A stretch of DNA of 64,000 nucleotides from Patescibacteria group bacterium UBA7435 (GTDB lineage Bacteria; Patescibacteriota; Minisyncoccia; Phycocordibacterales; UBA918). Under the pieces are notes generated by a model. The model was not told the origin of the DNA and ran no database searches. It saw nothing but the letters and a program-made list of their open reading frames with translations. The translations under genes were made by a program, and so were the position numbers. Below are positions 8,693 to 10,863 of this stretch, piece by piece (positions within the stretch are counted from its first letter, which is position 1; every line of letters begins with the position of its first letter). The stretch lies in contig DLQJ01000007.1 in the NCBI GenBank assembly GCA_002477545.1, positions 19,942-83,941 on the forward strand. The letters are read 5' to 3'.

Positions 8693-9436
8693 ATGGATGG
8701 AACTGCAACACTAGAAAAGTTTGAAGTTAAAACTGAGGCCTTTGAGGGACCGTTGGAACTTTTGTTAGATCTGGTAGAACGGCGGAAACTGTTGATCAAT
8801 GATATCTCGCTTGCAGAGGTGACTGATGAATATATGCGACAGGTGTCGATCATGCAGGAACTGTCGCTACCAAACACGGCACAGTTCGTGGCGCTGGCTG
8901 CGACGTTACTTTTAATTAAATCGAAGTCGCTACTTCCGGTACTTGATCTAAGCACCGAAGAGGAGGAAGGAATTGATAACCTTGAGCTACGCCTGAAGCG
9001 GTACCAAATGTATCGAGATATCGCGAAGAACGTGGAAGAACTTTTTGGAAATACGATGACGCATGAACGTCAATATGTGGCTGACAAAAATCCAGTTTTT
9101 GTAACTGATAAATTTACCACCACATCAGGATTAGAAGAAGCTATTGGGAGTGTATTAGTAAATCTACCTAAGAAAGAAATCAAGCAAAAGGTACAAGTGC
9201 GTAAAGTAATCTCCCTTGAGGAAATGATGAACCGCCTACATTTGCGTATTGAAAACCAAATAAAAATGAAGTTTAGTGAATTGGTTGAAAACTCAACAGA
9301 ACGAACCGATGTAATTGTCGGGTTCTTAGCAATCCTAGAGTCAGTTAAGCAGGGAAGTATCCTCGTGGCACAACTCAATCGTTTTGAAGATATAGAAATA
9401 GAGCAGGAAAGTGCGCAAACCCCCAAATATACATAA
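8693..9436 (+). CDS. scpA: Segregation and condensation protein A
   Basis: ScpA-like N-terminus 'FEGPLELLLDLVERRKLLINDISLAEVTDEY'. Confidence 0.8.
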   Translation: MDGTATLEKFEVKTEAFEGPLELLLDLVERRKLLINDISLAEVTDEYMRQVSIMQELSLPNTAQFVALAATLLLIKSKSLLPVLDLSTEEEEGIDNLELRLKRYQMYRDIAKNVEELFGNTMTHERQYVADKNPVFVTDKFTTTSGLEEAIGSVLVNLPKKEIKQKVQVRKVISLEEMMNRLHLRIENQIKMKFSELVENSTERTDVIVGFLAILESVKQGSILVAQLNRFEDIEIEQESAQTPKYT

Positions 9437-9485
9437 AAGGCGGGCAAATATTGCCCGCCGCTGTCTTTTATTTGAAAAATTATTT

Positions 9486-9842
9486 TCAAACAGGCTGCTG
9501 AATTTTAATCTTGTTTACAAGATAACCTCTATATTCAAGAGGACGAATAGGTCTTATATCTTCTCTCCTGAGAAGAATAATTCCCTTTTCGTGCACTTCT
9601 AAATGAAATTGGTACCATGGAATTTCATAGATTTCACCAGTTAGATGATCCTCTATAAACGAACATTCACCGCAACATTGTGCAACGTTAGTGATGTAAG
9701 ATCGTAATTCATTTATTCCATTAGTAAATAAATTAAATTCTTGGTTTTTTCGCACATGAACATCAAAATGTCCCCTAAATTGTGTTACGTCTGTTATAAG
9801 TCCTGTCTTCATTACTGCCTCCTCTTTTAAATTTTTGTACAA
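9486..9842 (-). CDS. Hypothetical protein (CCGEC motif), antisense to the scp gene direction
   Basis: 118-aa ORF. No recognised domain. Confidence 0.35.
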   Translation of the reverse strand: MYKNLKEEAVMKTGLITDVTQFRGHFDVHVRKNQEFNLFTNGINELRSYITNVAQCCGECSFIEDHLTGEIYEIPWYQFHLEVHEKGIILLRREDIRPIRPLEYRGYLVNKIKIQQPV

Positions 9843-9940
9843 CTTCTATACTTTGTAATGTACTACCTGCTTATTTTTTGTCAAAAAAAATGCCCCACTA
9901 ATATAATATGTGAGGCATTGTGCTGAAAAATTCAGCTAAT

Positions 9941-10260
9941 CTCCGTTTGAGTTCTGCATTACTAGGACTCCCCCTGTAAATAATTGCGTCCTGGTCAATC
10001 CAGACGCACGCCGGCCAAATCAGATGTTGTTTGAGACTATCGCTGGAGCGATAGTAGTCGGACCACGAATTAGCATGATCTTACTCCTTTTATCAGTTTG
10101 AGCTTTCTTCTTCAATGTGTTGACCATGCGGCCGTTTTCGAGCCAAGAAGCCTACGGGCTCTCTATGGCGATCGCAACTAGCAGTCATATGATGCCAATT
10201 TTCGCGATATCATCACCGCAGGTCAACGCGAATATACTAGCACATAGTATGGTTTTGTCA
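9941..10260. other. GC-rich ORF-free segment with several perfect hairpins; unclassified, candidate structured ncRNA or gene remnant
   Basis: No ORF of 60 aa or more on either strand. Local GC is visibly higher than the flanks. Palindrome 'gactatcgctggagcgatagtc'. No tmRNA tag or RNase P CR-I/CR-V motifs were found by eye. Confidence 0.3.
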
Positions 10261-10326
10261 ACAGCTGTACAAGTAAAATGCGTATTTGTCTAGATATTGC
10301 TATAATTAGAAGGTTAATACGACGTT

Positions 10327-10863
10327 ATGGAGCTTTCAACACAAATTGAAGGGCTGTTGTTCTATAAAGCAGCACCTATTAAACTCACTACGCTGAAAAA
10401 GATTTTTAGTGTGTCTGATGGTGAATTGGAAACAGCAGTACAGAACATCAAGGAACGTCTACATGAAGGTGCTATACGTCTTGCTATCACTGAAACGGAA
10501 GTGCAATTAGTTACAGCCCCAGAACTAGATGAACTCATAGAGTCGGTACGCAAAGATGAACTCAAGCGTGACATTGGAAAAGCAGGTGCTGAAACATTGG
10601 CGATTGTTTTATACAAAGGACCAATTAGCCGAGTTGAGATTGATCGTATTCGCGGTGTTAATTCAGGATTTATTCTGCGAAACCTTATGGTGCGTGGATT
10701 AATCGAGCGGGGAACCCAAGGAAAGAGTCACACATTTGCTCTGACGCCCACATTACTATCTCACTTGGGCATCACGCACAAAACTGAACTTCCAAACTAC
10801 GCGACGGTACTTGATCAACTTGAAAGGTTTGAGCAAGAACAAATTGACGCTGAAAATATATAA
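10327..10863 (+). CDS. scpB: Segregation and condensation protein B
   Basis: 'IEGLLFYKAAP' ScpB N-terminal motif, tandem winged-helix size and context with scpA. Confidence 0.8.
   Translation: MELSTQIEGLLFYKAAPIKLTTLKKIFSVSDGELETAVQNIKERLHEGAIRLAITETEVQLVTAPELDELIESVRKDELKRDIGKAGAETLAIVLYKGPISRVEIDRIRGVNSGFILRNLMVRGLIERGTQGKSHTFALTPTLLSHLGITHKTELPNYATVLDQLERFEQEQIDAENI

Follow-up and report, generated by a model that had tools for sequence, protein, structure and literature searches.

SgrS/SgrT, RNAIII/delta-haemolysin and SR1/SR1P are bacterial small RNAs (sRNAs) of dual function, each of which also encodes a small peptide. Short leaders of the ErmCL/ErmBL type and SecM (RAGP) are regulatory leader or arrest peptides, and the CreT RNA toxin of CreTA and the bar minigenes of phage lambda are minigene RNAs. 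Here we describe the spacer between scpA and scpB in a 64-kb stretch of contig DLQJ01000007.1 from Patescibacteria group bacterium UBA7435 (hereafter the window; position 1 is its first letter). Our data suggest that this spacer is probably a stand-alone, minus-strand gene for a structured sRNA that is translated at two micro-open reading frames (micro-ORFs) and is dual-function or leader-like. The RNA family appears to be previously undescribed, confined to one Patescibacteria clade and fixed at the scpA-scpB junction. Genomes of Patescibacteria (candidate phyla radiation) are tiny and contain hardly any non-coding DNA. To our knowledge, almost nothing is known of their regulatory RNAs or micro-proteins.

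The window RNA resembles the dual-function sRNAs in being a predicted stand-alone gene of a few hundred nt with its own promoter and intrinsic terminator, strongly structured, equipped with a small ORF led by a Shine-Dalgarno (SD) sequence, and lineage-restricted. It differs from them in having two micro-ORFs as short as 18 and 7 codons, in showing no sequence or Rfam relationship to them, in having no named base-pairing target, and in that the peptides of its family combine a conserved N-terminus with a variable remainder. Both the independent unit and the coding signatures expected of this class are supported at the level of sequence. With leader and arrest peptides it shares a very short SD-led ORF, a conserved Arg-Gly-Pro core and an ORF start that is more conserved than the end, and a ribosome could reshape the RNA hairpins on either side. 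Among RAPP/RGPP arrest peptides (PMC12992588, PMC10951233), the RAPP-like motif R-(A/G)-(P/G)-P sits at the C-terminus of a longer nascent chain that fills the tunnel, upstream of a regulated gene (PMC12992588). In contrast, the motif here is RGPT, with RGSP, RDPT or NAPN in relatives, at residues 4-7, and most members have no downstream gene. We therefore rejected a RAPP-like peptide on both motif and position. The family is similar to CreT and the bar minigenes in combining a strong SD, an AUG, a few codons, a stop and then a stem-loop; two relatives have frames of four (MRRR-stop) and two codons. It differs from them in lacking a consistent rare-codon run across the family and a CRISPR-Cas or CreA-like partner nearby.

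The window carries scpA (8693-9436, plus strand, PF02616) and scpB (10327-10863, plus strand, PF04079) at a distance of 890 nt. For comparison, we used the nearest ScpB-bearing contigs from GTDB genomes and metagenomes, which are labelled Saccharibacteria, Parcubacteria, Paceibacterota or Minisyncoccia; individual loci are given as L and a number. An earlier note on this DNA had proposed that the two genes, normally adjacent, are split here by an antisense 118-aa ORF and a GC-rich, ORF-free segment (9843-10326). The synteny comparison agreed that adjacency is usual: where ScpB identity was below 50% (92 loci), the median gap was 33 nt and 78 gaps were at most 120 nt. The GC comparison did not agree. 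GC of the segment was 0.415, which is also the mean of the window and ranks at the 48th percentile among 484-nt windows; it looks GC-rich because an AT-rich ORF (GC 0.336) adjoins it. The RNA core was mildly raised (GC 0.459, 89th percentile). The adjoining ORF has 108 aa from an SD-preceded ATG (9812), and the figure of 118 aa counts from an upstream TTG; we refer to it as ORF108. The segment is ORF-free at a cut-off of at least 60 aa (longest 58 aa on the plus strand, 35 aa on the minus strand), but two SD-led micro-ORFs lie inside it. Besides these, the earlier note missed the strand of the RNA and the separate conserved status of the 108-aa ORF.

We observed a putative sigma-70-type promoter on the minus strand at 10261-10234, composed of a -35 element TTGACA (10261-10256), a 16-nt spacer and an extended -10 element TGcTAGTAT (10242-10234). 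The promoter scan scored it 10/12, with the TG, and most relatives have the same TTGACA-N14-TGnTAnnnT arrangement. The predicted transcript of ~345 nt would run from a transcription start site (TSS) at ~10228 to the U-tract at 9883, the end of an intrinsic terminator (9883-9916, minus strand) in which the fold forms a GCCUCAC...GUGGGGC hairpin followed by U8. Terminator hairpins of the relatives showed compensatory changes at 7/9 pairs. We assigned the RNA to the minus strand because the promoter and the terminator hairpin with U8 occur on this strand only, and because G-U pairs in the conserved helices of relatives would become C-A mismatches on the other strand. The predicted transcript was more stable than its shuffles (minimum free energy -113.3 kcal/mol, z = -3.97; 0/100 shuffles equally stable), and the segment 9843-10326 exceeded dinucleotide shuffles in fold stability on the plus (z = -3.4) and minus (z = -2.8) strands. 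In L007 (1-338), from a strain variant of the same organism, the sole difference in the RNA region is the loss of 5 nt from the terminator loop (window 9905-9909).

Micro-ORF A (10076-10020, minus strand; 18 codons, MLIRGPTTIAPAIVSNNI) follows an SD AAGGAG at 10089-10084, and its peptide begins M-L-I-R-G-P-T. Micro-ORF B (9959-9936, minus strand; 7 codons, MQNSNGD, UAG stop) follows an SD GGGGGAG at 9974-9968. At both micro-ORF positions, a canonical SD precedes an AUG by 5-9 nt in every family member, diverged sequences included. The peptide A start M-x-IRGPT is shared by the window, L005, L013, L156, L157 and L163, with changes at third codon positions only. Variants are I-R-G-S-P in L076 and L020 and P-R-G-S-P in L015; RDPT at residues 4-7 also occurs in relatives. 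When the block was defined by nucleotides (AUUCGUGGNCCNACN), all three variable columns fell at codon position 3 (p = 0.02). An in-frame difference of exactly one codon between AUG and AUU (AUG NNN AUU vs AUG AUU) sets L157 and L163 apart from the other members. The N-terminal motif [IVLP]RGS?P was unique to small ORFs of the scpA-scpB gaps among 4088 SD-led small ORFs (5-60 codons) in 1.66 Mb of fetched sequence. Peptide B has the form MQ(D/N)S(N/S)G... in six members (window, L009, L099, L087, L162, L163), with many synonymous changes. Minigene-like frames were seen as the second micro-ORF in L165 (AUG AGG CGA CGA UAA; gap 1577-2000, antisense), L156 (MRFRP) and L157 (MNWLP), and as an SD-led ORF of two codons in L082 (AUG AAG UAG).

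The predicted folds open with a multi-branched 5' domain (10120-10226, minus strand), closed by the 11-bp helix P1 between UUGACCUGCGG (10226-10216) and CCGCAUGGUCAA (10131-10120). In 14 family members the predictions contain a closing helix of 9-14 bp that begins within a few nt of the TSS, and its sequence is never the same twice, for example GUCAGACUGCC/GGCAGUCUGAC in L013 vs GUCAGACCGCC/GGCGGUCUGAC in L082, and a conserved CACAUGG sits 5' of the P1 3' strand. The start codon of micro-ORF A is paired to its own Arg codon in the hairpin GAUCAUG/CGUGGUC, where AUG faces the CGU-GGU codons. Position -3 and the wobble base of the Gly codon change together, being A-U in the window and U-A in L013 and L157. 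A second hairpin within micro-ORF A (10036-10055, minus strand; ACUAUCGC-UCCA-GCGAUAGU) is the one that the earlier note had quoted. Its arms are real (10036-10044 and 10047-10055, 9 nt, 100% complementary), and the outermost g-c pair given there is absent. L005 has CUCUAUCG-AAAAAA-CGAUAGAG at this position, with compensatory changes relative to the window. The conserved GGCCGGCG box (10016-10009, minus strand) directly follows the AUCUGAU box and stop codon of micro-ORF A, and it is followed by the hairpin GCGUCUGG-AUUGA-CCAGGACGC (10007-9986, minus strand) with a GG-AUUGA-CC apex. The box and a GG-AUGA-CC-type apex hairpin recur with different stems in L156, L011, L087, L157, L005 and L162. 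A post-stop hairpin, GCUGAA-UUU-UUCAGC (9922-9936, minus strand), abuts the UAG of micro-ORF B. Its counterpart in the family is the homologous hairpin GCUGGnnCCAUAAnnCCAGC, where 8 relatives show 100% pairing and exchange G-C for A-U pairs by covariation. Both micro-ORFs are flanked by conserved hairpins.

The source organism groups with Patescibacteria, and the size of the scpA-scpB gap tracks relatedness. Where ScpB was at least 60% identical, 18/23 loci had gaps of at least 250 nt (250-1936 nt). These gaps share one layout antisense to scpB, in which a structured RNA of 260-575 nt that contains SD-led micro-ORFs stands between a TTGACA-N14-TGnTAnnnT promoter and an intrinsic terminator. 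The unit lies between scpB and scpA in L005, L009, L011, L013, L076, L082, L087, L099, L156, L157, L162, L163 and L165; the gap of L016 (2827-3000) is a run of N, and its content is not readable. To judge from these sequences, the RNA-bearing relatives are Patescibacteria with ScpB at least ~55-60% identical. Two of them carry other labels, namely L009 (JBLHQB010000007.1, "Patiriisocius sp.", ScpB 90% identical to the window) and L011 (JBLIMJ010000031.1, "Acidimicrobiales bacterium", 76%); both have Patescibacteria-type synteny and are probably mis-binned. L079 and L081 (ScpB 78% identical) have an 81-nt gap that keeps the promoter block without the RNA body, which suggests that the RNA was deleted there and that the gene is accessory. 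Their gap consists of the scpB promoter block and a relic antisense -35, TTGTCAA...AAAATGCG...TGTTATACT.

Homology was also seen in the RNA body, with the promoter left out. Comparisons by nhmmer gave E = 4e-8 for the window with L005, 1e-3 for L005 with L156, and 1e-8 to 1e-30 for L156 with L157, L011, L099, L087 and L009. An iterated nhmmer profile built from relatives only matched the window at 10088-9938 (minus strand; E = 1.5e-9 to 2.9e-10), its sole match in the window (128 kb searched). A MAFFT-based profile of relatives did not detect the window; only the nhmmer-iterated alignments did. A fixed-spacing search for micro-ORF A with GCCGGC returned no match across the loci because the spacing varies. 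In position, the window unit agrees with the family: it lies between scpA and scpB, antisense and back-to-back with the scpB promoter, with TTGACA, an extended -10 and an intrinsic terminator. The order of its elements agrees as well (P1 domain, SD-led micro-ORF A, GCCGGCG box and hairpin, SD-led micro-ORF B, post-stop hairpin). Among the origins considered in the earlier note, these data favour a lineage-specific structured RNA, given the minus-strand promoter and terminator, the same locus in relatives, the window-free profile match (E~1e-9) and the covarying helices of the family. A decayed gene does not fit, as relatives keep the promoter, terminator, SDs, boxes and helices. The idea of a foreign insertion was right in that a clade-specific unit splits an otherwise adjacent pair, but no phage or plasmid similarity was found.

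We aligned the 3' module of eight relatives. Their 31-pair family structure consists of the post-stop hairpin, whose loop reads CCAUAA, an H-type pseudoknot (stem CGGN/NCCG, its loop paired to a downstream segment), a CAGGU/ACCUG hairpin and the terminator. Across the eight, 91% of these positions were paired, vs 30-43% in slid controls (0/500 shuffles match), and 12 pairs showed compensatory changes. In L165 the pseudoknot stem covaries in yet another, third form. The pseudoknot and the CAGGU/ACCUG hairpin are present in L156, L157, L009, L099, L087, L011, L162, L163 and L165. The window and L005 have neither, and their post-stop hairpin is followed directly by the terminator; we therefore regard them as reduced family members. 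The helices of the window were left out of the pair counting because MAFFT aligned the region from GCCGGCG to micro-ORF B poorly; they are backed also by the homology of the post-stop hairpin and terminator. In the post-stop hairpin of L009, L099, L087, L162, L156 and L157, the conserved CCAUAA(C) loop shows complementarity of only 6-7 nt to (G)UUAUGG, which covers the scpB start codon on the divergent mRNA; the window hairpin has no CCAUAA loop.

ORF108 (9812-9486, minus strand, 108 aa; SD GAGGAGG 9824-9818) is a separate orphan gene outside the RNA. It has a putative promoter of its own, TTGACA-16-TACATT (9884-9857, minus strand; -35 9884-9879, -10 9862-9857; scan 10/12), which overlaps the end of the RNA terminator. 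A -35-like hexamer directly follows the RNA terminator in every ORF-bearing relative (TTGACA in L005, L009, L099, L156 and L157; TTGCCT in L076). Word-indexed and exhaustive profile searches of 1.8 billion representatives returned five or six clusters of homologues, and L076, L099 and L163 carry others that have diverged further. Wherever context suffices, the homologues lie directly downstream of the RNA terminator between scpB and scpA. The RNA and an ORF of ~100 codons occur together in the window, L005, L009, L076, L099, L156, L157 and L163, and the RNA occurs without a downstream gene in L011/L164, L013, L080/L087, L082, L162 and L165. Given the separate promoter of ORF108 and the many genomes in which the RNA stands alone, the RNA is not simply an ORF108 leader. 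The AlphaFold (AF2) model from 6 sequences has one helix followed by seven strands (predicted local distance difference test 83.7, predicted template modelling score 0.77), and the sequences share the motifs CCGxC and PWY. We found no significant structural match in PDB (best E = 0.2) or BFVD (best E = 0.02); the best PDB matches were weak (E = 0.2-1), and barrels of the Hfq/Sm-like, Pelota-N and Tudor types were among them. For ORF108, sequence profiles from Pfam, PADLOC and PDB were negative as well.

We compared the locus with known RNA families. Rfam 15 gave no match at gathering thresholds in the whole 64-kb window, and 9400-10400 at E<=10 gave noise only (a snoU49 C/D-box-like match at E = 0.034 and terminator-driven "leaders"). 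Among the related loci, 34 searched at gathering and four fuller members searched at E<=1 likewise gave noise only. ARAGORN found no transfer RNA (tRNA) or transfer-messenger RNA (tmRNA) in the window and nothing in 26 related loci, so the 64-kb window holds neither a tRNA gene nor an Rfam family at gathering. The earlier note had seen no convincing signs of tmRNA, RNase P or signal recognition particle (SRP) RNA, in agreement with these searches. It had left 6S RNA as a candidate, which the Rfam results did not bear out at gathering or among matches at E<=10. RNase P, 6S and SRP RNA were rejected on the Rfam covariance models, which look for conserved P4/CR-I/CR-V, a central bubble and domain IV, and tmRNA on the absence of a tRNA-like acceptor/T-arm and a CCA end, on frames that both have SD and AUG, and on the negative ARAGORN and Rfam results. 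The 58-aa plus-strand ORF has no Pfam match, and a protein remnant or pseudogene was rejected. The RNA contains no tandem repeats (Tandem Repeats Finder, 0 arrays). Distant-mode blastn found no DNA similarity to phages or plasmids. A scan of viral contigs for the conserved hairpin gave 0 matches, and the micro-ORF A pattern gave 16, all inside coding regions without SD or promoter, which we attribute to chance. A type I toxin-antitoxin was rejected: peptides A and B are polar without a hydrophobic stretch of transmembrane length, and no conserved antisense promoter was found. A type III (ToxIN-like) system and a riboswitch or attenuator of ORF108 were rejected too, the former on the missing tandem repeats and the lack of a PADLOC or Pfam match for ORF108, the latter on the members without a downstream ORF, the separate ORF108 promoter and, by inspection, the absence of an antiterminator.

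We infer transcription, translation and any regulatory role of the RNA from sequence comparison, and we propose the following course. A near-consensus sigma-70 promoter would drive the ~345-nt RNA, which would end at the intrinsic terminator. RNA structure would gate ribosome access to micro-ORF A, and ribosomes crossing the micro-ORFs would reshape the downstream hairpins. The output may lie in the micro-peptides or in the conformation adopted by the 3' part of the RNA. A coupling of ribosome entry or passage to folding is suggested because the start codon lies in a hairpin, boxes lie at the end of micro-ORF A, and hairpins or a pseudoknot lie behind micro-ORF B. In a more specific version, the RNA would be a new translation-gated device, in which nascent M-x-I-R-G-P-T (or N-A-P-N) serves as an in-ribosome sensor or arrest element at codons 4-7 and occupancy of both micro-ORFs switches the downstream hairpin/pseudoknot module. 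This module could work in trans, with the divergent scpB or the convergent scpA as possible targets. We regard this version as speculative and rather improbable.

Several points weigh against a translated sRNA. The promoter, TSS, terminator and translation are predictions, and the mode of action is a proposal. A second type of peptide A, M-(P/M)-N-A-P-N, occurs in L099, L087 and L162; L076 joins both types (MFAPPNGHIRGSPT). Peptide B differs in L156 (MRFRP), L157 (MNWLP) and L165 (MRRR), where the SD, the AUG and a 4-5-codon ORF are retained, so that at micro-ORF B a short, apparently translated frame is conserved and the peptide sequence is not. Across four peptide blocks, 12/19 third positions were variable vs 6/38 first and second positions (Fisher p = 5e-4), a test that is partly circular in that the blocks were recognised by peptide; the nucleotide-defined IRGPT block alone gives the p = 0.02 reported above. 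Coding and structure constraints overlap, and RNA structure could account for some of the "synonymous" pattern. Finally, much of the evidence from covariation comes from the pseudoknot module, which the window lacks, and the window's own helices rest mainly on folding energy and comparison with one close relative, L005. A rival reading is a purely non-coding RNA, either an sRNA that base-pairs in trans or one that binds a protein or the ribosome, with the SD-AUG elements as structural or binding motifs and the peptides irrelevant. The strong structure, the helix covariation, the buried start codon of micro-ORF A with its covarying -3 base and Gly wobble, and the variability of peptide B all agree with this. 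So do the conserved boxes (CACAUGG, AUGAAAC, AUCUGAU-GCCGGCG and the CCAUAA loop) and the complementarity of that loop in relatives to UUAUGG at the scpB start, short as it is and missing from the window. However, an SD at 5-9 nt before an AUG is retained at both positions in every member despite divergence, substitutions are three-periodic and accompanied by the in-frame codon indel, and the peptide A motif is unique to the locus. We consider a purely non-coding RNA unlikely.

Other readings centre on the neighbouring gene or on the origin of the spacer. The RNA and ORF108 could form one module, as an RNA with a cognate small RNA-binding protein or a type III-like toxin-antitoxin whose RNA antitoxin lies upstream of the protein gene, on the other side of a terminator. 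Homologues of the ~100-aa ORF directly follow the RNA terminator and occur almost nowhere else, the order of promoter, structured RNA, terminator and small protein gene is that of ToxIN, and the AF2 model is a small beta-rich fold with weak Hfq/Sm-like, Pelota-N and Tudor matches. Unlike ToxIN, the RNA has no tandem repeats, and the protein is unlike ToxN/AbiE-type toxins, has its own promoter and is often absent. With fold matches that are not significant and no PADLOC or Pfam match, we find a single module quite improbable. A leader or attenuator acting in cis, whose leader peptide and terminator would govern read-through into ORF108, would explain the order of promoter, SD-led short ORFs, terminator and ORF108, which resembles classical attenuation, and the conserved N-terminal R-G-P, which recalls ribosome-arrest motifs. 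The members without a downstream gene, the ORF108 promoter, the absence of any visible antiterminator complementary to the 5' arm of the terminator, and micro-ORF stops that lie too far from the terminator in fuller members make this very improbable. Gene decay, or a neutral spacer that an insertion left behind and whose hairpins formed by chance, would account for the variable locus (gaps of 58-1936 nt among close relatives, no RNA body in L079 and L081) and the AT-rich ORF108 region. It would not account for a promoter, terminator, SDs, boxes and helices conserved where ScpB is only 60-80% identical, nor for the fold z-score of the transcript or for micro-ORFs with conserved N-termini as the sole ORFs, and no similarity to phage or plasmid DNA was found; we judge it extremely improbable. 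A highly divergent tmRNA, RNase P, 6S or SRP RNA missed by current models is barely credible. The RNA is superficially like tmRNA in its size of ~345 nt, strong promoter, terminator and short internal frame whose stop abuts a hairpin, with a pseudoknot next in fuller relatives, but it differs in having no tRNA-like domain or CCA end and in frames that open with SD and AUG unlike a tag frame. Rfam gave only noise for the window and 38 related loci, and the RNA is missing from the close relatives L079 and L081, as an essential RNA would not be unless encoded elsewhere.

As a translated or dual-function sRNA gene, the locus is a well-delimited candidate outside Rfam, with a strongly promoted structured RNA and two conserved micro-ORFs in more than 12 related uncultured lineages. 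The scpA-scpB junction appears to be a hot spot for small genes in this clade (the RNA, the ~100-aa orphan protein family and other units), at which scpB seems to have gained its own promoter. If the micro-ORFs are translated, they would add to the smallest conserved bacterial coding sequences, and if the RNA acts via ribosome traffic, it would offer a compact model of translation-coupled RNA switching. Were the arrest version true, it would amount to a minimal arrest peptide that departs from the RAPP/SecM rules and is tied to a stand-alone RNA instead of a downstream gene. For annotation, the locus is a warning that "ORF-free" spacers of reduced genomes can hide genes missed by standard pipelines.

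A distant subgroup (L084:1392-2500, L090, L085, L086 and L094; ScpB 66-70% identical) has a longer antisense unit with the same promoter type and several SD-led mini-ORFs (MTW[KSR]S.., MKWTCINA/MTWIGTNA, M[KS]KW.RPPIRA.. and MIFLM.SK.VGH). It also has a tRNA-like minihelix, GGGCGCGGGGTCGAAACCCCGCGCCC-ACC, for which ARAGORN and Rfam were negative. On the plus strand, a promoter-like TTGTCA-18-TATAAT (11/12) at 9878-9907 points toward scpB, antisense to the RNA. It overlaps the RNA terminator and the ORF108 -35, and no counterpart was seen by eye in L005, the one relative inspected. An extended -10 element, TGcTATAAT (10298-10306, plus strand), read from the sequence ~20 nt upstream of the scpB ATG, would serve as the promoter of scpB. 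It stands back-to-back with the RNA-gene promoter, and this block is kept in all relatives, RNA-less ones included. At the other end of the spacer, the terminator scan found a hairpin in which 7 of the 9 pairs are GC and each strand has a T-run (9439-9459), a predicted bidirectional terminator for scpA (plus strand) and ORF108 (minus strand).

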